Below, piece by piece: positions 18,896-52,316 of a stretch of DNA of 64,000 bases. The stretch's first letter is position 1, and the number at the start of each line of letters is the position of its first letter. The translations under genes were made by a program, and so were the position numbers. The notes under the pieces were generated by a model. It searched no databases. It saw only the letters and a list, made by a program, of their open reading frames with translations, and was not told the DNA's origin. Origin of the DNA: a virus (taxonomy: Duplodnaviria > Caudoviricetes); IMG/VR virus record IMGVR_UViG_3300047160_014082, positions 19,028 to 83,027 of that record; one strand, given 5' to 3'.

Positions 18896-19387
18896 ATGCC
18901 TGAACGTTTCCCAACCTCTAAGCCGGAAGTCATCTGCGGGACCAACCTGTTTTCCGGCACCCCCAACACGGGTCAGCAGCCGACAACCTACGGCGGCTCC
19001 AACAATTTCCAGAAGTTTTCGGGCACCGTCGGCCCAGACCTAAGCATCTGGGTAGGTGCCGGCCGTCTGGACAACTTTGCTTCTCTGGGAACCATCGGCA
19101 CCACGGACATCAAGCAAGCCAGCGGCCAGCCGATCATCTTTTACGATTCGGCCATCGCGGCTTCGGGTGGTCCCATCGCTGCTTCTGGTCACAAGATCAT
19201 CGCCATTCTGGACACCCGCGGCTTTCCTTTGCCTGGGGGTAACCCGAACATCTTTAACTCGGGCGCTCTGTCCTACGGCTACCCGCCGACCCCCGTGGGC
19301 GCCGTTTTCACTTCTGGGCTGTGCGTCAGCATGACCAGCGGTCAGGTCGGCTTTAACGTCAGCTTCACCCCGGTCGTCAGCGGTTGA
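18896..19387 (+). CDS. Probable virion structural protein (SG-rich)
   Basis: AAAGGA upstream of ATG 18896; 9 SG dipeptides in 163 aa. Confidence 0.45.
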   Translation: MPERFPTSKPEVICGTNLFSGTPNTGQQPTTYGGSNNFQKFSGTVGPDLSIWVGAGRLDNFASLGTIGTTDIKQASGQPIIFYDSAIAASGGPIAASGHKIIAILDTRGFPLPGGNPNIFNSGALSYGYPPTPVGAVFTSGLCVSMTSGQVGFNVSFTPVVSG

Positions 19388-39383: not shown

Positions 39384-41189
39384 ATGGATACTCCAACTAC
39401 AGCAAATACAGCTCCGAAAAAAATCAGATCCTTGGATTGTGAGTGCCCAGCTCCGGGCTATTGCCCGAAATATGAACGCAAGATGCTAGGACGCTTATGG
39501 GAGCTGTGTAGCGGTCATTGCCACCCGGAGCGTCCCTGCACCCGGGATATGATTCTGTCCTATCGGAAACACTTCGTTGAACTCTATTTAGGCTTGAGTA
39601 AGGAGGAAATCGACCGTCTGGAAGTAGAAACAATCGTTGAGGAGCATAAACGCACACCAAGTCCGGCTCCTAGAGAAATGCGCCGGGCGCTGCCTTGTGC
39701 CTACCTAGGACCTGAAAAGGACCAGAATGTCTGCGGGAGCTGCACAAATAATACTCGTGTCAAGGTCTTTTCTTGTTCTAATCCTGGCAAGCCTGATGGC
39801 CGCACTACGTTACGATTTTGCTGGGATCATTGCCCAATTTATACCCCTGAATACGGATCCTGGAACGATCTGCCCGAACCTGTGCAGATGCCATCGGAGA
39901 ATATGAGCCTGGTGTCTGCTCTCAAGCTTCTGGATTCTCCCCCCATCGTTCCCCAAGGAAGCCAGGCTGAATGGTCCAGCTGGAAGGTAGTATCGGACGC
40001 TCACATAATTGGTGCTGATGCTGCTGCGGCGAGGGCGCTGCGCCTATCCTGTCCTAGCCTGCCCCAGGAAAAGGGTATTGTTATGGGTGTGGGGGGAACA
40101 GACTTGTATACTCAAGCTTGGGTTTGCACCAAGCGCCTGCGCGACCTGGGTTGTAAGCTGCCGATTCAGTGGTGGTATATCGGGCTTGGGGAAATGGACC
40201 CGACGATGATCGACCTGGTACAAAGCGAGTTGAACGTCGAATGCGTTAACGCTCGGGACCATACAGCACTACATCCGGCGCGGATCCTGGCCGGCTGGGA
40301 ACTCAAGCCTTACTCTATTATCCATTCTCCTTTCTACCAGGTCTTGTATCTGGATGCAGACAATACCCCCTGCCGGGATCCTACTTACTTGTTCGATGCT
40401 ATGTTATTCCAAGAGCTTGGCGCTGTGTTCTGGCCCGACATCCCACCGCCCAACCGGATGGAATGGATTCCGCCCAAAGCTTGGGAATCGTGTGGTATGG
40501 CTTACATCAGCAGCCGCGCTTTTGAAACGGGCCAACTTATGGTAGACAAGCGCAAATGTTGGCCCGCGCTACAACTTACCATGTGGATCAATGAGCACTC
40601 GGATCGTTTCTACCGGGTCGTGTATGGGGATAAGGATACTTTCCTGCTAGCCTGGACAAAGACGAATACCCGCTATGCCATGCCTGGGCGTGGCGCTGAT
40701 GACAACGGTGCCGGCTTGACTCATTTTGATCTGCAAGACAATCGAATCTTTCAGCATCGCTGTCAACACAAATGGCGCTATCAAGGACCGAATCGCAGCC
40801 CCCGTACCTTCTATTTTGGTGCGGAATGCCTGCAAATCATCGATGGCCTATGCCAGCGTTGGTGTGGGCGTCCTTGGGATCCTCAGTATATGAGCCCGGA
40901 TGAAGACAGGCTAGCAGATGAAGTAGTCGGCCTATATCAATACGAGCGCATTGGTTTGAATATCCGGCCCTTGCAATTGATGCAGAATGGGAAGATAGGA
41001 ACAGGACGTGCGGGCTGTGAAGATTATTGGAGTTTGTATATCTTGAATGGAGTTCCGACGCTGATTATCGGCGGGGGTGGACGAGCAACGATGTTCTTGA
41101 CCGGGGGTTTGAACCGTGGGATTTGGCGCGGGCGTTGGGAATACTACGAGCGCTGCCCCGTGGCTTTGGTAAAATTGGAGGGGTGCTAA
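39384..41189 (+). CDS. GT71/Mnn2-like mannosyltransferase with Cys-rich N-terminus
   Basis: LGCKLPIQWWY, KPYSIIHSPF..VLYLDADN, VFWPD, ETGQLMVDK, YGDKDTF.LAW. Confidence 0.8.
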   Translation: MDTPTTANTAPKKIRSLDCECPAPGYCPKYERKMLGRLWELCSGHCHPERPCTRDMILSYRKHFVELYLGLSKEEIDRLEVETIVEEHKRTPSPAPREMRRALPCAYLGPEKDQNVCGSCTNNTRVKVFSCSNPGKPDGRTTLRFCWDHCPIYTPEYGSWNDLPEPVQMPSENMSLVSALKLLDSPPIVPQGSQAEWSSWKVVSDAHIIGADAAAARALRLSCPSLPQEKGIVMGVGGTDLYTQAWVCTKRLRDLGCKLPIQWWYIGLGEMDPTMIDLVQSELNVECVNARDHTALHPARILAGWELKPYSIIHSPFYQVLYLDADNTPCRDPTYLFDAMLFQELGAVFWPDIPPPNRMEWIPPKAWESCGMAYISSRAFETGQLMVDKRKCWPALQLTMWINEHSDRFYRVVYGDKDTFLLAWTKTNTRYAMPGRGADDNGAGLTHFDLQDNRIFQHRCQHKWRYQGPNRSPRTFYFGAECLQIIDGLCQRWCGRPWDPQYMSPDEDRLADEVVGLYQYERIGLNIRPLQLMQNGKIGTGRAGCEDYWSLYILNGVPTLIIGGGGRATMFLTGGLNRGIWRGRWEYYERCPVALVKLEGC

Positions 41190-41190
41190 A

Positions 41191-41877
41191 ATGGGGCTGT
41201 GCTTCCGACCAAATACCTGGGATCAAGCCATCTGGGAAAGCGTGTCTCTGCGGAACGAGTACCAACTACCCGATTCTCTGGTAGGCCGCAGTGTGGTAGA
41301 TATTGGCGCGCATATTGGTTCTTTCGCCGCTGCCTGCTTGCGCCGGCACGCTGCCAAGATCTACTGTTACGAGGCCAATTGGGACAATGTAAAGTGCATG
41401 GTTCATAATCTGCATTCTGCTCTGGAGGCTTGGCAGACGGTAGAAATACATCACTTGGCAGTCTGGAGAGCCAATGAAAATCCTGGCTATATGCGTCTAG
41501 TCGAGCCAGCTGGCGTAGATTGCAATACGGGTGGACGGTTTGTTACTACGGATAATCTAGGGATGGAAACTGTGGGGGTTGTGGGTATTGATGAAGTGCT
41601 ACAACGGACAGCTACGCGCAGTTCTACAAATGGCTGCCCAAATCGAGTGGGCTTGCTAAAGATGGATTGCGAAGGAGCGGAATGGGACCTGTTGCGGACC
41701 AGCCAATGTTTGGATCTGGTAGATGAAGTAGTGGGAGAGTATCACTTGGTTCCGAGACAGGAAGAAGAACGGGGCAGCGTGGAAAACCTAATGACCTACT
41801 TACACCGAGCTGGCTTTCAGACACGTACTAAGCTGTCCTCGACTTACTTGGGATTATTCTGGGCCTGGAGGGGTTAA
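41191..41877 (+). CDS. FkbM-family methyltransferase
   Basis: VVDIGAHIGSF, CYEAN, LLKMDCEGAE, VVGEYH. Confidence 0.85.
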   Translation: MGLCFRPNTWDQAIWESVSLRNEYQLPDSLVGRSVVDIGAHIGSFAAACLRRHAAKIYCYEANWDNVKCMVHNLHSALEAWQTVEIHHLAVWRANENPGYMRLVEPAGVDCNTGGRFVTTDNLGMETVGVVGIDEVLQRTATRSSTNGCPNRVGLLKMDCEGAEWDLLRTSQCLDLVDEVVGEYHLVPRQEEERGSVENLMTYLHRAGFQTRTKLSSTYLGLFWAWRG

Positions 41878-43833: not shown

Positions 43834-44421
43834 CTACTCTCCTAAATCGTAAACCTTGTTACCCACACACAGGTCGGGGATGTGGGTGGCCATGATGAAT
43901 TGGATCCCTAATTCCTGGGCCAGCTCGCGAATGAGCTGAGCGGCCCGGGGCCGGCATTCCTTGTCTAGGAACTTGAACGGCTCGTCTTGAACGAGCAACT
44001 TGCGTTTCGCGGGATGGCTCAGACACAAGCAGGCCAGGCGCTGGGCGAAACCGATCATATCGCAAACCCCCCCGCCGGCCTGGTGCAAAGGGTCGTCCAG
44101 CTCCAGGCCGTCCCGATACAGAACAACAACGGCTTCCGTCTTGCCACGCTTCTGTTCGAACTTGATTTCTACTGAGTAGGGCTGTTCATACACGGCTTCC
44201 AAGCAGCGTGTAACGACCTTGGCAATTCTTTGGCTGACCTGGTTCTGAACCTGTTGGGCGACCTCCTGGCAAAGCTTCTGGGCGCCCTGGGTATACCCCA
44301 AGGCAATCTTGTCGTTCTTGATGGCCTTCTTGATGGTCTTGATGTCCCGTACGATCCCCTGATGTTCCGTTAATAGCCGGTCCAAGTTTTTCCGCCATCT
44401 GTCTAGCTCGACGTCGAGCAT
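43834..44421 (-). CDS. sbcC: SbcC/Rad50-like ABC ATPase, C-terminal half
   Basis: Coiled coil, AGGG signature, LLVQDEPFKFLD Walker B/D-loop, MATH H-loop. Confidence 0.8.
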   Translation of the reverse strand: MLDVELDRWRKNLDRLLTEHQGIVRDIKTIKKAIKNDKIALGYTQGAQKLCQEVAQQVQNQVSQRIAKVVTRCLEAVYEQPYSVEIKFEQKRGKTEAVVVLYRDGLELDDPLHQAGGGVCDMIGFAQRLACLCLSHPAKRKLLVQDEPFKFLDKECRPRAAQLIRELAQELGIQFIMATHIPDLCVGNKVYDLGE

Positions 44422-44650
44422 GATTGTCGTTGCTCCTTTTCCGGCACGTTGGGCACAAGACGATCCCAGGACCGCGCCGCCGGCCGCAGACGGGGCACAA
44501 GCCCTGAGCCTTGCGTTGTTCATAACGTTCCTTGGCCTTAGCGATGATGCTGCGCATACATTCCTTGCAAACGCTGGCCCCAGGTTGGGGGGCACCACAA
44601 GCACCACAACGGTCGGCTTCCCGGTAACGTAAGTATGATAGGCTACTCAC
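44186..44650 (-). CDS. Zinc-finger protein (the 3' part overlapping sbcC-C may be non-functional)
   Basis: CGACG..CKEC and CPVCG..CPTC. Confidence 0.5.
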   Translation of the reverse strand: MSSLSYLRYREADRCGACGAPQPGASVCKECMRSIIAKAKERYEQRKAQGLCPVCGRRRGPGIVLCPTCRKRSNDNHARRRARQMAEKLGPAINGTSGDRTGHQDHQEGHQERQDCLGVYPGRPEALPGGRPTGSEPGQPKNCQGRYTLLGSRV

Positions 44651-44905
44651 TTATAGATCCTCCAAGGCTTTGCGGACTTGAGGCTCCGTCTGTTCCCGCC
44701 AGACGGTGCGTCTCTCATCTACTTCGGGCTCTTCCTTCGCTAGCAGTTGTTGTAATTTGGCCAGGCGCTTCTTCAGCTGCTCCAGGTCTAAACCCTCATC
44801 TTCCTTGTGTTGCTGAATCTGGCCTTCGGTCTGATGTAACAGGCGCTCATACTGCTTCTCCAGTTCTTTCAGCTCCCGATACTCATCTGGGGTTAGGGGT
44901 TTCAT
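44651..44905 (-). CDS. Coiled-coil hypothetical protein
   Basis: Heptad-like E/K/L/Q composition; coupled to sbcD. Confidence 0.55.
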   Translation of the reverse strand: MKPLTPDEYRELKELEKQYERLLHQTEGQIQQHKEDEGLDLEQLKKRLAKLQQLLAKEEPEVDERRTVWREQTEPQVRKALEDL

Positions 44906-45912
44906 TTTTTGTCCCCACCCATGGCTGCTAGGGCACGTTGCCGCAAGCCATCGGAAACTTGGCCATGATCCATGGTCCGAATTACGGCCGCGGCGTAGTC
45001 CATAGCGGACTGTCCCAGATCCCCCAGGGAAGCGATGACGTCATCAAAATAGCCTTCCTGCTTCAGCTCGCCGGGTTGTTGAGGGGTAAACTTGTCATCA
45101 CCGATGTTGAGCGCCTGACGCTTCACAGAGCCATCGGAGTAGATAATGCCAATGCTAGGCCAGTGTGCCCGCTCGACCATGCGCCTCCGGATGAACGTCC
45201 CACAGTTGTAGACGTAGGCGCCATGATCCAACTTGGCATCAAAGGGGGTGTGGTTATCCCCGACTACGACAACATCGTAACCCCGGAACGAGTCGGACAG
45301 GCGCATAAGACGATCTTCGACCTTGGCCCCCTCATAGCCAGTCTTTTTCGTCCAGATGTATTTGTGAACTAGAGCGATATCTATTGCCATATCGTGGGGC
45401 CGTTCCAGAGGCATAGGCTTGTGTCCCCAGGGGAAGCCGTGTAGGCGCAGCACTCGCCCCTTGGTGGTTGGGATTTCGATGAACTCTTGTGGAAAGCCAT
45501 CTTCAAATTGGGCTGGGGGGACATTAATGACCTTGCCGGCCTTGACTAGTGTCCAGTAGGCGCTGCGTTCGATGTCATCATAACGGTGATGGGGCAGATC
45601 ATGCTGGCCGGGGATGGCATAACACCGCGGGGGTAGCATTCCCAGAACCCAATTGATCAACTCTGGGGGACAACGATGGGGTCGCCAGCCGTCATCAAAT
45701 ACATCCCCAGCGATCAGAATGGGCAGTAACCAATTTTCTCCTATCATTGGGGGTTGTTGCTGGGATAGCCTTTCTTGCAAGGTGTGCAACTGGCGCAGGT
45801 AGCCAGTCTGGACTGCATACCAGTAGAGGGACTCTTGCTCCCGGGCCAGGGGTGCCTTGTGGGATAGGTGTAAATCCCCGATCACAAGGGCGACCGGATC
45901 GGCTGGCCGCAC
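44902..45912 (-). CDS. sbcD: SbcD/Mre11-like metallophosphoesterase nuclease
   Basis: GDLH, AGDVFD, PGQHD, LVH, GDNH; start placed at GTG after GGGGAGG. Confidence 0.85.
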   Translation of the reverse strand: MRPADPVALVIGDLHLSHKAPLAREQESLYWYAVQTGYLRQLHTLQERLSQQQPPMIGENWLLPILIAGDVFDDGWRPHRCPPELINWVLGMLPPRCYAIPGQHDLPHHRYDDIERSAYWTLVKAGKVINVPPAQFEDGFPQEFIEIPTTKGRVLRLHGFPWGHKPMPLERPHDMAIDIALVHKYIWTKKTGYEGAKVEDRLMRLSDSFRGYDVVVVGDNHTPFDAKLDHGAYVYNCGTFIRRRMVERAHWPSIGIIYSDGSVKRQALNIGDDKFTPQQPGELKQEGYFDDVIASLGDLGQSAMDYAAAVIRTMDHGQVSDGLRQRALAAMGGDKK

Positions 45913-46787
45913 AGCGGACACCTCCCCTTTGTCCCCTTGGCGATTCGCTGGCGGATCTGGGCCAACTTTTCTTGTAGTTCGCATCGCGTTTCCTGTAGTT
46001 TGGTATACCTACGTATAGCATTTTCGACGTCCGCTAGCTCGACCCGGTAGTCCAGGACCCTCTTAGCCTGGACCAATAGGGATTGCAACGCCGTACGCGC
46101 TCGTAGGAGCGTTTTCTTGCGTTGGGCTAGTCTCTCCCCCTCTTGGAGCTGATCGTTGATCCTGGCGCATTCCTGACGGGTTTTCGCTATGGACGTGGAC
46201 AAACGTTCTATTTCTGCTAGTTCGGTATTAGCTTGTAATACCCAAGCTAGGGTATCCCGCTTGCCCCGGGCATCCTTCAGGGACTCCCGATGCAGGTCGA
46301 GTTGCGTCTTTTCACGGCGGACCCAGCTGGCCAGATTGGCAAGGGTGCTGTCAATCAAGGTGAGGTCAACAACGGCGTTTAGTTCCCGGGCCAGCTGACC
46401 CCCCGTTAGGTTGAGCCAGAACGGGGGGTCGTGCTGATCCTGGAAGTTCACGTTTCCGACATTGAGGAGCTTGGCGACGCCAGCGGGGACTTCGGTGCCG
46501 ACTTTTTGGAACTGACCAGCGCCAAGTTGATAGCTATTGTCTGACCGGCTTCGATAGCGGGTACAGGTTTGTCCATCAACGAACAGAATGCATTCAGAAA
46601 AGTCTGTTCCTTTTCGGATAAAGGATACTCCAGAAGGATAGTTTGTTGCCAGCCACCTAAGACATCGGAGCAATGCAGATTTTCCCGCATCGTTAGGTCC
46701 TGTAAATACGGTAACGAGCGGGTCAAGTACGAACTCTTCCCGCTCGTGTTTCTGGAAATTCACGACGACGATCTTTTCAAGAGCCAT
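45882..46787 (-). CDS. sbcC: SbcC/Rad50-like ATPase, N-terminal half ending in a zinc hook
   Basis: VVNFQKH, GPNDAGKS Walker A, FQDQHD Q-loop, C-terminal CPLCG. Confidence 0.85.
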   Translation of the reverse strand: MALEKIVVVNFQKHEREEFVLDPLVTVFTGPNDAGKSALLRCLRWLATNYPSGVSFIRKGTDFSECILFVDGQTCTRYRSRSDNSYQLGAGQFQKVGTEVPAGVAKLLNVGNVNFQDQHDPPFWLNLTGGQLARELNAVVDLTLIDSTLANLASWVRREKTQLDLHRESLKDARGKRDTLAWVLQANTELAEIERLSTSIAKTRQECARINDQLQEGERLAQRKKTLLRARTALQSLLVQAKRVLDYRVELADVENAIRRYTKLQETRCELQEKLAQIRQRIAKGTKGRCPLCGQPIRSPL

Positions 46788-48254: not shown

Positions 48255-48740
48255 TTACTCTTCCACAACAGCATCAATGGCTTCGATCACCGCGGCGAAT
48301 TCATCCAGATGAGAAATGCGCAGGCGCACCCCCTTGAGCAACCGTCGTGCCTCGTTGAGAGCCTGTTCGCGTAGATCACTATTGGTCATGACCGTTTCAA
48401 CCGGAAGATAGCCGCGGCCATCTTCCGTGGTCACGCACAGATAGGCGGCGCACATCTTTTTGTCGCCTTGCTGGTCTTCATAGACCAGCCGGCAGCAGTG
48501 GATGATGCTCCGGGCCTGGTGCTCTTGCCAGCGCCGCGCGGCTCTGTTTTTGTTCCAATCAATCAGCTCATGGGCAGGGGAGCGGGGATCCTTGGCTTCA
48601 TCAACGAAGCGCGAGGCGCTGACCTGTCCGTCCCGCGCCAAGCGGTCGATCATACGTCCAATGGCATTAGCCTCCGCCTTGCCCGGCCGGAAACCCTCTG
48701 CCCATTCCCACTGCTTCTGTTTCGCCTTAGTCGTCGTCAT
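48255..48740 (-). CDS. Uncharacterised protein directly downstream of array 1
   Basis: AAGGGG RBS; SPAHELIDWN..AA..W..HQARSII pattern. Confidence 0.7.
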   Translation of the reverse strand: MTTTKAKQKQWEWAEGFRPGKAEANAIGRMIDRLARDGQVSASRFVDEAKDPRSPAHELIDWNKNRAARRWQEHQARSIIHCCRLVYEDQQGDKKMCAAYLCVTTEDGRGYLPVETVMTNSDLREQALNEARRLLKGVRLRISHLDEFAAVIEAIDAVVEE

Positions 48741-48762
48741 GATGTTCCCCTTCTTGCTGTCT

Positions 48763-48791
48763 AAAAGGGGGAGGGCACCAAAGCCCTCCCC
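48763..48791 (-). terminator. Intrinsic terminator at the 3' end of array 1
   Basis: Minus strand GGGGAGGGC-tttggt-GCCCTCCCC followed by C and TTTT. Confidence 0.7.
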
Positions 48792-48804
48792 GAAACCAAA
48801 GGTG

Positions 48805-49828
48805 GCAAGACCCGCCGGAGCCCGTCTAGCCTTGCCTTGACGCCCCATGTCTTGGAAAACCAGCTAGACAGGTCTAGCCGTGCCAAGACTCGGCATGGTG
48901 AGCCAAGTAAAACCAGCCATGTTCAGACCTGTTCGGTCCGGACTTGCCGTGCCTTGTAAAACCTGCCGAGACCCAACGAGACTTGGCCGGTCCTGGACAG
49001 CCACCGCGCTCCCAGCCGAGTCGTGTAAAACCAGCCGGACAGGTCTCGGCTCGTCTTGTCTCTACTCCATGTGCCTAGCCGTGTAAAACCGGCCTGGGCG
49101 CGTCTTGTCTCGTTCTGCCTAGACGATGCTTGCCCTGTAAAACCAGCCAGGCCGGGACTAGCACCGGCCGGACCCGGCTCGACTAGGCTCGCCCTATCTT
49201 GTTCAACACATCAGGCCTCGTAAAACCCTCTCGACCAGTCTGGCCTTGTCTTACCAAGACACTCGTGGTCCGCCACGCAAAACCGGCCAGGCCGGGACAA
49301 GCCGCGGCCCGCCTTGGCGAGGCTCGGGGTTTCTAGTCTCGTAAAACCTGCCAAGTCAAGACCGTACTTGCCTAGGCGGGGCGCTACATGCCTTGTAAAA
49401 CCGGCCGTAGCTCGACCTGCCGACACCAGTCTTGACGTCCCATGCCTAGTAAAACCAGCCCAAGACATGGCGCGCCATGTCGCCTCTTGCCCAGACTCGT
49501 CTCGTAAAACCTGCCTGGACATGCCGCGGCCCGTCCTGACGCTGACGACCCGTGACACACCTCGCCTAGAAAAAGTAAGGCCAGACAGGACTGCCCTTGG
49601 CAGGCCCAAGCTTGTACAGCCCTGTCTAGCCGTGCCGAGTAAAACCTGCCGAGACCCGGCTTGCCTTGCCTAGGCCCTACCCGGCCTGTCTTGACGCTAC
49701 CAGCCATGTAAAACCGGCCTGGGCGCGCCATGTCTCGACTAATCAGGTCTCTACTCGCCTTGTAACATCCCAGCTTGGCCCGACGAGGCTCAGCGCCCCG
49801 TGGCATAACCGGACCAGGAAGACAACAA
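48805..49828 (-). repeat. Array 1 of NN-G(G/N)Y pentamer units, each closed by GGTTTTAC (about 17 units); putative guide-like ncRNA array
   Basis: Plus-strand anchor (G[T/A/C/G]AAAACC) at 48854, 48907, 48956, 49025, 49083, 49137, 49220, 49277, 49341, 49395, 49449, 49504, 49639, 49708; degenerate copies at 48805, 49569, 49762. Spacings are mostly 49/54/64/69 +/-1. Confidence 0.9.
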
Positions 49829-50551
49829 CTACAGCCCTTGCACTTGCCACAGCCCCAGATCCCCGGTGTTGCTCTCGGGAGAAGAGGGGCGCATTTCGCA
49901 CACCCCGACATTCATACCGGCCCGGGCGCACAGATTCATCAAGTGCTCCAGACTCAGGATGTCGGCATCGAAGGAAATCCGCAGCCGGGCCGCCCATTCG
50001 GTGTATTCGGCTCGGAAGCGCACATCCGCTGTGCGCCCGTTGTTGATTCGTACCATGTCCTCGCGCATGTGTGGTTTGCCGTCGATCAGCACACAGCGCA
50101 TGCCCTCGGTGCTGATGAAATTGAAACGCACGAAGAACAGTTGCTTGGCGAAGGTCATGGTCAGATCAGGCACAAAACGGCAGGCCTGAACCATCGCATC
50201 CTTGAACGCTCCAGCCGGGACGCCGTGTTCCCCGCGCGGGCCGCGGTACATGCTGGCTTCGTAGCACGCCTCCGGATCCTTGAACTCCTGCTTCACCACC
50301 TTTCCCATCTGCTTGGCCAAAATCATTTCCCGAGCCTTGGCATCCCAGGCATGGGTGACCAGGGGAGTGATACCGACGATATCGATGTGAGCTTCCAGAC
50401 GGCGCGGCTTGGGGATGACGATCCCTGTCATCTTCTCCGCCTTCTTGGAAGGCGGCTTCTTGGCCTTGCCGTTGCCATTAGTGCTTGGAAGGACCGCTTC
50501 CAGACGATTTGTCGCTTCGACCTTCTTGCTCGTCTTCTTGCTCGTAGCCAT
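49829..50551 (-). CDS. RAMP/Cas7(Csm3)-like protein between the two arrays
   Basis: IDIVGITPLVTH first strand; GVPAGAFKDAM (cf. IPGSSLKG); C-terminal Gly loop GMNVGVCEMRP...GDLGLWQV. Confidence 0.7.
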   Translation of the reverse strand: MATSKKTSKKVEATNRLEAVLPSTNGNGKAKKPPSKKAEKMTGIVIPKPRRLEAHIDIVGITPLVTHAWDAKAREMILAKQMGKVVKQEFKDPEACYEASMYRGPRGEHGVPAGAFKDAMVQACRFVPDLTMTFAKQLFFVRFNFISTEGMRCVLIDGKPHMREDMVRINNGRTADVRFRAEYTEWAARLRISFDADILSLEHLMNLCARAGMNVGVCEMRPSSPESNTGDLGLWQVQGL

Positions 50552-50574
50552 GATGTAACCCTTTCAATTGAAAA

Positions 50575-51281
50575 AACAAACCAAGACTCGTTCACACATT
50601 ACGGCACATGCCTCTTCTCGTCCCTGCCCGTCATGTAAAACCAGCCATGTTCTGTCGGTTCACCTCCAGGCCTCATAAGCCATGAAAAACCGGCCCTGTC
50701 CTGGCAAGACGTGCCGGGACTTGTTCTGCCTGACCTTGCCTCGAAAAACCTGCCCAAGTCTCGTCATGCCGATACAGCGCTCGTTCCAGCCAGTCAGTAC
50801 AGACCCGGCCCAGTAAAACCTGCCGTGACATGGACTGCCGGTTCGCGCCCAGACTACCTGGGCCATGTAAAACCCGTCCTCGCCACGGCTCGGCCACACC
50901 CTTCCTAGCGCTACCGGTCGCGTAAAACCGGCCGTGTCAGGTCTGCACACGCCGACACAGTACGGGACGATCCTAGTAAAACCGGCCGTGTCATGTCATC
51001 GCTAGCCACCTCCTATCCAGACCATACGAGTAAAACCCTCGCGACACGCGGCTAGCCCTAGCTTGCCAGCGCCCGCCAGAACGCCCCTAGCCGTGTAAAA
51101 CCGGCCGTGCCTTGGCGCCGTCTCGCCCCGTCTCGCCATGCCCTGTCCCATCGCGCCATGTAAAACCTGCCTTGACTAGGCTGGACGATGCAAGTCCAGG
51201 CCTGATATGCCACGTAAAACCGGCCGCGACTTGGCCGGACATGCCCTCACAGAACCTGCCGATACAGGCCGGGAAAAACTC
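50575..51281 (-). repeat. Array 2 of NN-G(G/N)Y pentamer units (about 13 units)
   Basis: Anchors at 50635, 50684, 50743, 50813, 50867, 50922, 50976, 51030, 51095, 51160, 51214; degenerate at 50575 and 51273. Spacings 49, 59, 70, 54, 55, 54, 54, 65, 65, 54. Confidence 0.9.
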
Positions 51282-52316
51282 CTACTGGTAACGGGTTTTG
51301 CGATTCACCGAACACGCTTTCTCGACTTCGCGCCAACGCTCAACCACGAGCTGGCGCAGCTTGGGCTCTTCGTTGTTATTCTGGATCTGATGGATGAGTT
51401 TTTCGGTATCCCCCTTGAAGCTAAATTCGGGGGCGGTGACTATTTTCTCCTTTCCGGTCCAAACACCCTCATCAACCAGGAAGTAGATACACGACGCCAG
51501 CTCATCGAAGCCGTAGCGCTTGCGAAAGGGTAGCACCACGTCCCAGTCGAGCCCGGCCGTGGAATTCTTCTTGACCTGGATGCGCAGCAACTGGCCTATG
51601 GTGCGATCTTTGCCCAGGACCTTTTTCTTCAGCTTGCTCTTGACCGAGAACCACAGTTCCAGATTGGCATAGAAGGTCAGCGCCTGACCCCCGGAGCGCG
51701 TTTTGGGATTGAAGACGGCTTTGGGACCGATGTTTTGTCTTGTTTGCTTGATGATCAAGAGAATGCTGTTGCTGGGCTTGACGAACCGATTAACGACCAC
51801 CCCCAGGCGCTCGGAATTCATGCGGGCTTTTTCAGTTTTGTAACCCTGGGCTTTCGCATCGGCTGCTTCCAACGGATCTTCACTGTCCAACAGGTAGATA
51901 CATGGCCCTTGAGAACAGAAGCGCTGTACGTTGTCATAGAAATCCCCCAACGATTTTGATGGCCCATTCTGGTGTGGTGAAATCATTCGTTTTAGGAGTA
52001 CCTTCCCGTAGTAGCGCTCGAAATCCATCAGGTCACCGCGGCCCTCCGTATTGTCGTAGATGAGAGTGTACTTGTCGTACGCGGAATCCAGGCAGGCTTC
52101 GGCCAGCGCTTGCACGCCCAGCCAAGATTTGCCGGCCTGGGAATCACCAACGATCAGGTTGTAGTAACCTGGCACCAAGCCCAGGTCAGGATCCCCCGAA
52201 CACGCCAGGTTCAACATGGTCGAGCCCAGGCTCAGGCCCTTGAGCCGGGGGGGCAGCTTCTTGACGCCTAGAAGCTTTTTCTTCAGAGCTTCAATACTGG
52301 CTTTGTTGTTGCTCAT
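51282..52316 (-). CDS. recA: RecA/UvsX-like recombinase
   Basis: GSTMLNLAC, GDSQAGKS Walker A, LLDS, KQTRQNIG, RSGGQALTFYA. Confidence 0.9.
   Translation of the reverse strand: MSNNKASIEALKKKLLGVKKLPPRLKGLSLGSTMLNLACSGDPDLGLVPGYYNLIVGDSQAGKSWLGVQALAEACLDSAYDKYTLIYDNTEGRGDLMDFERYYGKVLLKRMISPHQNGPSKSLGDFYDNVQRFCSQGPCIYLLDSEDPLEAADAKAQGYKTEKARMNSERLGVVVNRFVKPSNSILLIIKQTRQNIGPKAVFNPKTRSGGQALTFYANLELWFSVKSKLKKKVLGKDRTIGQLLRIQVKKNSTAGLDWDVVLPFRKRYGFDELASCIYFLVDEGVWTGKEKIVTAPEFSFKGDTEKLIHQIQNNNEEPKLRQLVVERWREVEKACSVNRKTRYQ

Follow-up and report, generated by a model that had tools for sequence, protein, structure and literature searches.

The stretch of DNA analysed here, called the window below, comprises 64,000 nucleotides (64 kb) of the virus record IMGVR_UViG_3300047160_014082 (Duplodnaviria; Caudoviricetes; positions 19,028 to 83,027 of the record), which represents an 83-kb genome (83,027-bp contig). 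Its minus strand carries a gene for a small RAMP protein with an array of short repeats on either side of it, and beyond one of the arrays a hairpin and a second small gene. The locus resembles VIPR (Viral Interference Programmable Repeat), which was first described in 2026 preprints as a minimal RAMP protein (Vipr) borne by phages together with a second gene, vap, and with guide RNAs (vrRNAs) built of 9-16 pentamers, each with a fixed GGY and a free NN (10.64898/2026.04.26.720920). We therefore use the names vipr and vap for the two genes. The anatomy, which is directly observed, reads as follows:

50575..51256, minus strand: putative vrRNA array 2, upstream of vipr, with 11 anchor words and 2 degenerate edge words; its units, about 12, span 35-70 nt and consist of NN-G-N-C pentamers
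49829..50551, minus strand: vipr, encoding a 240-aa stand-alone minimal RAMP protein (Cas7-like), by its match to phrog_4652, its profile match to SUSP1 Vipr, and an AlphaFold2 model searched with Foldseek
48805..49812, minus strand: putative vrRNA array 1, with 17 anchor words, of which 12 are exact, 2 have one mismatch and 3 are degenerate; the 16 units measure 49-83 nt
48763..48791, minus strand: terminator-like hairpin closing array 1, with a 9-bp stem and a 6-nt loop, then C and UUUU
48255..48740, minus strand: vap, a 161-aa vipr-accessory gene (phrog_15946); 85 of 117 vipr loci have a homologue

Some 28 candidate guides are packed within 1.7 kb on both sides of vipr and on the same strand. 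The genes in the neighbourhood encode UvsX-like, clamp-loader, SbcD-like and endonuclease VII proteins, and none of the nine open reading frames (ORFs) tested at the locus matched a Cas model in PADLOC. Over the whole window, Rfam (at the gathering threshold) and ARAGORN returned no RNA family, ribozyme or tRNA, and Tandem Repeats Finder reported no repeat array at the locus.

The product of the 240-aa ORF (P0001) matches phrog_4652 (E = 1.8e-18) and found no family in Pfam, NCBIfam or PADLOC. When a profile of 16 homologues was compared with the PDB, it matched the 'SUSP1 Vipr protein' (36pp_D, E = 9.2e-9) over the thumb and the G-loop. SUSP1 is an Escherichia phage with a type II VIPR, which also occurs in a Pseudomonas fulva prophage (biology in 10.64898/2026.10.15.759431; structures, PDB 36pp, in 10.64898/2026.04.26.720927). 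The AlphaFold2 model (predicted local distance difference test score, pLDDT, 80.6, the first ~34 residues being Lys-rich and of low confidence) had 40 matches in Foldseek at E<=1e-3, those listed being chains of Csm3, Cmr4, Cas7 (type VII and type I) and Cmr1, with 6xn3_F the best (E = 5.6e-5). An initial annotation of this DNA had called the ORF next to the array a RAMP protein, and both the Cas7/Csm3/Cmr4 chains found by the model and the family profile match to SUSP1 Vipr bear this out. Two closer relatives, P0004 (63% identity) and P0005 (55%), have no DNA placement. Those with DNA context reach at most 47% identity in IMG/VR, at most 43% in metagenomes except for an 88-residue fragment (L220, 52%), and 36% in the one locus found in GTDB.

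The arrays are punctuated by an anchor word, GGTTTTAC, whose exact form occurs 23 times in the window, against a mean of 1.17 and a maximum of 4 in 100 shuffles. Twenty-one of the 23 copies are on the minus strand between 48907 and 51221, in two arrays either side of ORF 49829-50551. If at most one mismatch is allowed, 25 anchors are found, 14 of them in array 1, downstream of the ORF, and 11 in array 2, upstream. Array 1 has two anchors that deviate by one base (GGTTTTGC at 49284 and GGTTTTCC at 48861) and, by reading of the sequence, three degenerate words (GATGTTAC at 49769, ACTTTTTC at 49576 and GGTCTTGC at 48812), while in array 2 the anchors are GGTTTTAC or GGTTTTTC, with degenerate edge words GGTTCTGT (51256) and GGTTTGTT (50582). 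Array 1 sets in 19 nt past the stop codon of the ORF (49829-49831), its first anchor-like word being GGTTATGC at 49810, so that the claim that the array begins right after the RAMP stop holds with this small gap.

The 16 anchor-to-anchor distances that had been reported for array 1 (49, 53, 49, 69, 58, 54, 83, 57, 64, 54, 54, 55, 65, 70, 69 and 54 nt) were exactly reproduced; the anchors with at most one mismatch give 13 intervals, one of which, 135 nt long, is the 65 and 70 of that list taken together. Divided by five, nine of the 16 distances leave a remainder of 4, three of 3, three of 0 and one of 2 (P = 1.5e-3 for the nine, against 0.2). In array 2 the remainder is 4 in 6/10 intervals and 0 in 4/10, and when both arrays are pooled 15 of 26 intervals are 4 modulo 5 (P = 2.6e-5), the remainder being 0 in seven, 3 in three and 2 in one. 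The initial annotation had described the distances as mostly 5n+4 +/-1, changing by whole pentamers. The pentamer build stands and the exact quantum is 5n+4, but the '+/-1' has to be given up: it spans three of the five residue classes and is a weak statement (15/16, P = 3e-3).

Several non-adjacent units of array 1 (49227-49348, 49032-49715 and 49144-49769, minus strand) are identical over their final 11-17 bases (e.g. GTCCCGGCCTGGC and GGGTCTCGGCA) and differ in the rest, which suggests unit duplication or recombination within the array.

Between the anchors, the DNA of both arrays is made of NN-G-N-C pentamers (263 parsed), each unit being a run of about 10-14 five-base steps. Across parsed and strict-register pentamers, G stands at position 3 in 89-92% and C at position 5 in 74-75%. 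The strict-register test used the 13 units with a length of 4 modulo 5, without fitting; of its 98 inner pentamers, 89% carry G in third place and 74% carry C in fifth. The ends of the units depart from the inner steps: NNGGC is the last pentamer before the junction in 13/13 clean units, and the pentamer right after the anchor has G at position 4 in 77%. In the whole 83-kb genome, pentamer tracts longer than one 40-nt scan window occur only at the two arrays.

The consensus of the array 1 junction is GGC-N-GGTTTTAC-NN-GGC. Its core, GGC-N-GGT, consists of two fixed triplets one base apart and is followed by an invariant TT-TAC (the TTTAC extension), so that a sequence logo has only 8-9 conserved bases between units. 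Units measure 5n+4 because the fixed triplets at the junction are separated by one base instead of two, which shifts the register by -1. This quantisation is the signature of the staggered layout, the 'staggered arrays' of the preprint being those whose vrRNAs come from positions overlapping by 1 nt (10.64898/2026.04.26.720920). No hairpin was found by eye between the anchor flanks in the 25 anchor contexts.

The same rule is observed across the clade. Among 117 related vipr loci from IMG/VR, GTDB genomes and metagenomes, 94 carry pentamer tracts beside vipr and on its strand, and in 22 of these 94 an array lies between vipr and vap, as at the present locus. Of the 260 register breaks within the relatives' tracts, 234 have a length of 4 nt, and such breaks dominate in 41 of the 43 loci with at least three breaks; the runs between breaks are mostly of 8-17 pentamers. 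In most of the 25 related loci with at least four junctions, the junction reads GGC-A-GG(C/T). The U-rich extension was found in none of these 25 (0/25), and a search of IMG/VR for GGC-N-GGTTTTAC-NN-GGC gave, among the matches listed, single matches and one contig with two matches 1.35 kb apart, with no second array.

A quite different view would be that the arrays are not RNA genes at all, and that they are either repeats acting at the level of DNA, such as iterons or protein-binding sites of a replication and recombination module, or functionless remnants. They do lie between the UvsX-like recombinase gene and the endonuclease genes, G-N-C is symmetric between the strands, and promoter-like sites occur at chance level (1 found, 1.8 expected). 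However, the arrays flank the Vipr gene and vap, and tracts accompany vipr in 94/117 relatives although the neighbours of these loci differ; the hypervariable NN beside fixed G and C, together with the conserved one-base junction, form the published vrRNA signature (10.64898/2026.04.26.720920); the end pentamers are asymmetric, with GGC on the vipr strand in 13/13 clean units; and the hairpin with its U-run is on that same strand. We regard the DNA-repeat explanation as very improbable.

Taken together, the vipr gene, vap and the two arrays are best read as a phage-encoded VIPR system with staggered guide-RNA (vrRNA) arrays, to which we give a probability of roughly 0.87. The locus agrees with published VIPR in gene content, strand, pentamer build and phage context, and also in guide length, with 10-14 fixed motifs to a unit. 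VIPR is an already known kind of system, a CRISPR-related RNA-guided DNA silencer, and the present copy is a clear further example of it, distinguished from those in the published text by a looser five-base code and by a longer and unusual U-rich junction word. These differences are measured against the published text and legends, and figures S16-S18 or the data tables may already show the consensus or the clade.

The looser code resides in the middle base of G-N-C (position 4), which in the 98 inner pentamers is A in 26%, C in 22%, G in 21% and T in 31%, that is 0.01 bit, as free as NN. In relatives, G or G/T is kept there, and the lowest information among the 94 loci is 0.17 bit (n=13). In the SUSP1 structure, D177, W178 and R179 of the G-loop and R138 of the thumb contact GGY, with W178 stacking on the second G (10.64898/2026.04.26.720927). 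The G-loop of the present Vipr reads GVCEMRP, and the alignment sets E219, M220, R221 and R180 against D177, W178, R179 and R138, so that three of the four are alike in kind and the stacking Trp is replaced by Met. The same Met is found in P0004, P0005 and L024.

This freedom could mean that the middle base acts as a third position of the guide, and that the variant protein reads three bases of five. The middle base might then pair with the base of the target skipped by SUSP1, and the recognition code would be contiguous or different in another way. The near-zero information in the 98 pentamers, the retention of G or G/T in relatives and the exchange of the stacking W178 for M220 all fit such a reading. 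On the other hand, R180, the counterpart of a base-binding arginine in SUSP1, is kept, and the base may be flipped out without being read. Triplets formed by n1, n2 and n4 were not codon-like in a weak test (z=-1.48 and p=0.92 against 2000 sets with the middle base shuffled; stop-like 10/124). The idea that the middle base tracks the Trp or Met of the G-loop was tried and rejected: this position is rich in T or C in the W-type loci L002, L005 and L007, and the Met locus L024 has 66% G, so that the W/M change is not tied to the base. A third guide position is, in our view, improbable, and so is a broader conjecture, in which a Vipr lineage with Met in the G-loop may have ceased to recognise the second base in the fixed triplet, leaving three free bases per step, and a nine-base U-rich junction may have taken the place of both the long tail and the plain stagger. 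Were the freed base to read the target, this would be a second and denser VIPR recognition code. A free middle base in a protein without the stacking tryptophan bears, in any case, on how strictly Vipr reads GGY, and is relevant to the re-engineering of short multiplexed guides.

Array 1 had been described as ending at a 9-bp GC hairpin with a T-run. The hairpin is real: GGGGAGGGC, a 6-nt loop and GCCCUCCCC at 48791-48768 fold with -22.2 kcal/mol (z -3.67; 1 of 200 shuffles as stable). The T-run is shorter than the description implied, for after one C only UUUU follows (48766-48763), and the site is absent from the hits of a terminator scan that called for 5 T in 8 because its T-run has four bases only. 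A single transcription unit ending at this hairpin is plausible, in which array 2, vipr and array 1 would form one transcript; since the U-run is short, read-through into vap would be likely.

The terminator scan returned 11 hits between 47500 and 52500, and in five of them (49146-49162, 49283-49295, 49648-49660, 50693-50710 and 51220-51238, minus strand) a GC stem of the last pentamers runs into the T-run of an anchor. Within the arrays, such stems could act as sites of pausing or partial termination.

The initial annotation had also imagined a transcript processed at or near the anchor, with the 48255-48740 protein as a co-candidate for this task, and nothing marks that protein as a processing enzyme. 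Instead, the arrays of a VIPR locus might never be cut: long transcripts of many guides would then carry separate filaments, held out of register by the one-base junctions, and GGUUUUAC would be a spacer or a pause and termination signal. The window holds no Rfam family, ribozymes included, no Cas6-like gene was found among the neighbours tested, and the five stems just mentioned imply that some anchors could stop or pause the polymerase. Moreover, the staggered array is the only layout for which the text of 10.64898/2026.04.26.720920, in the portion available, does not state confirmation by small-RNA sequencing. Against this, the legend of figure S18 of the same preprint speaks of 'individual processed vrRNAs', and the SUSP1 vrRNAs are described there as discrete species of ~100 nt. 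Here, the stem is found at just 5 of the 25 anchors, and a single-stranded U-rich word between tracts covered by protein would be an obvious ribonuclease (RNase) substrate. Uncut arrays thus appear unlikely, although less so than the readings set aside above, and we retain the staggered VIPR locus with separate guides.

In such a locus, each unit between anchors would be a guide. Vipr protomers would coat it, one per pentamer, holding the fixed G and C (G-N-C standing roughly for the published GGY) and leaving NN free. One Vipr protomer per pentamer is what cryo-electron microscopy found in SUSP1 (10.64898/2026.04.26.720927), and by homology the initial annotation's proposal that length is set by the number of bound subunits would be the expected mechanism. 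The NN bases would read double-stranded DNA, one target base being skipped at each step as in the VIPR papers (10.64898/2026.04.26.720920), with silencing of a competing mobile element as the outcome. The single protomer per pentamer, the silencing of DNA and the 1-nt skip code are carried over here from the published VIPR work. At a junction, the one-base spacing would put adjoining filaments out of register, so that a filament would stop there and one guide would be delimited from the next. The U-rich GGUUUUAC, exposed at this boundary, may serve as the cut site of a host RNase or as a filament cap. The role given to the U-rich word, the co-transcription of array 2, vipr and array 1, and the tolerance of any middle base are our own proposals.

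The gene at 48255-48740, sited after array 1 and the hairpin, is by its sequence conservation the conserved accessory gene (vap) of the clade, a homologue of its product (P0002, 161 aa, phrog_15946) being present in 85/117 related vipr loci. Its model (pLDDT 93.9) has a winged-helix-like core at residues ~14-119 and a C-terminal helical hairpin, and VIA-align gave Z scores of 5-6.4 to winged-helix proteins and helical hairpins, which is under the caution level of the tool. Searches of Pfam, NCBIfam, PADLOC and PDB sequences found no family or relative, and Foldseek found none at E<=1e-3. The gene has also been catalogued as a 197-aa product (P0019; 48255-48848, minus strand) with a start at 48848, within array 1, so that it reads across the hairpin. 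This call looks over-extended because the alignment of homologues begins no earlier than residues ~5-24 of the 161-aa form and because the ATG at 48740 has a GGGG-rich ribosome site.

Several observations weigh against the interpretation of the locus as a VIPR system, and we gather them here. The canonical GGY is lost inside the units, where the second G is not conserved, and perturbation of GGY in SUSP1 abolished silencing according to 10.64898/2026.04.26.720920, GGY>GAY being among the substitutions tested there (legend S12). The text of that preprint does allow 'a related consensus' beside GGY, and the forms named in its methods are YNNGG, NNNGG, YNNNG and NNNNG only. Met takes the place of SUSP1 W178 (M220 here). 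Because G-N-C reads the same on either strand, the strand call rests on the GGC end pentamers, the junction, the orientation of the genes and the hairpin. Eleven of the 26 intervals deviate from 5n+4, the deviating units having extra internal register breaks or a degenerate anchor. The type II vrRNA of SUSP1 carries a conserved 3' pseudoknot tail of ~40 nt and a strict GGY, whereas the present locus is without such a tail and has 8-9 conserved bases between its units. A scan for NNx targets with skips of 0-3 nt, over the phage's own genome and 234 loci (1.05 Mb), gave best matches at the level of shuffled guides: neither a self-target nor a match to related vipr or vap loci rose above them, and a skip of 3 retrieved only the arrays themselves. 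None of the RNA sequencing runs searched for the locus contains it, so these runs gave no transcript, ends or ribonucleoprotein. Finally, the locus is placed in VIPR without being assigned to one of its types, of which the preprint distinguishes seven, with alternative consensus forms (NNNGG, YNNNG, NNNNG) and several array layouts (10.64898/2026.04.26.720920).

Some further observations concern the genome around the locus. An SbcD-like phosphoesterase gene (44902-45984) is located between ORF 45882-46787, which encodes an N-terminal ATPase part (AAA_23/SMC_N), and ORF 43834-44607, which encodes a C-terminal ATPase part with a weak SbcC-like PHROG match; the three, on the minus strand (43834-46787), may be a split SbcC arrangement. 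On the plus strand, opposite to the replication module, a gene for a mannosyltransferase-like protein of 601 aa precedes one for an FkbM-type methyltransferase (39384-41877), and these are phage-borne sugar-modification genes. The contig starts, ~19 kb before the window, with triplet repeats of the CCACCG/CCACCA type, and a terminal direct repeat of 11-200 bases joining the contig ends was not found, so that completeness of the genome is not shown. Nine pieces (151-320 nt) of the region 48419-51368 were recovered at low depth from four soil-metagenome runs of four studies, eight of them identical and one with 5 differences in 35 nt. These matches indicate that the phage, or a nearly identical one, recurs in soils; the nine pieces held nothing informative on array polymorphism.

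The picture of what VIPR is remains unchanged by the present locus. Its interest is that of a compact natural test case, in which guides are bounded by a word of 8-9 nt and not by a 40-nt tail, and which could show what sets the ends of vrRNAs and where a filament starts and stops, in an array type for which the 2026 VIPR preprints, in their accessible parts, contain no RNA-end data. If the U-rich word alone were to set the guide ends, no smaller self-delimiting punctuation of a guide array would be known.

Compared with known systems, the locus stands closest to staggered VIPR. Both have a stand-alone Vipr RAMP protein and a small vap in a phage, with pentamer arrays on the vipr strand (10.64898/2026.04.26.720920), and in both the guides abut with a one-base shift (5n+4), with neither ribozymes nor a long tail between them. 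The present locus differs in its junction, extended to GGC-N-GGTTTTAC, in an inner G-N-C with a free middle base, and in having arrays on both sides of vipr with ~28 guides. With the type II VIPR of SUSP1 and P. fulva it shares the protein family (E 9.2e-9), the vipr-vap pair, guides of 9-16 pentamers and an expected single protomer per pentamer. However, SUSP1 has four vrRNAs against the ~28 guides here, and its Vipr is of 202 aa against 240 aa with a Lys-rich N-terminal extension of ~45 residues, the likeness being confined to the C-terminal third.

The resemblance to the backbone of class 1 CRISPR-Cas systems (Cas7/Csm3/Cmr4) lies in the RAMP fold (Foldseek probability 1.00, TM-score 0.36-0.52) and, by analogy, in a protein filament that would form on a guide RNA and in guides separated by a conserved word. 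The differences are nevertheless clear, since class 1 systems have a 6-nt periodicity and a contiguous guide, in contrast to the 5-nt periodicity and non-contiguous guide at the present locus. The CRISPR separator is a repeat of 23-50 nt as opposed to 8-9 nt here, where the 'spacers' have an internal 5-nt periodicity; and, unlike CRISPR-Cas, the present system is encoded by a phage and has no cas1, cas2, cas6 or large-subunit gene among the neighbours tested.

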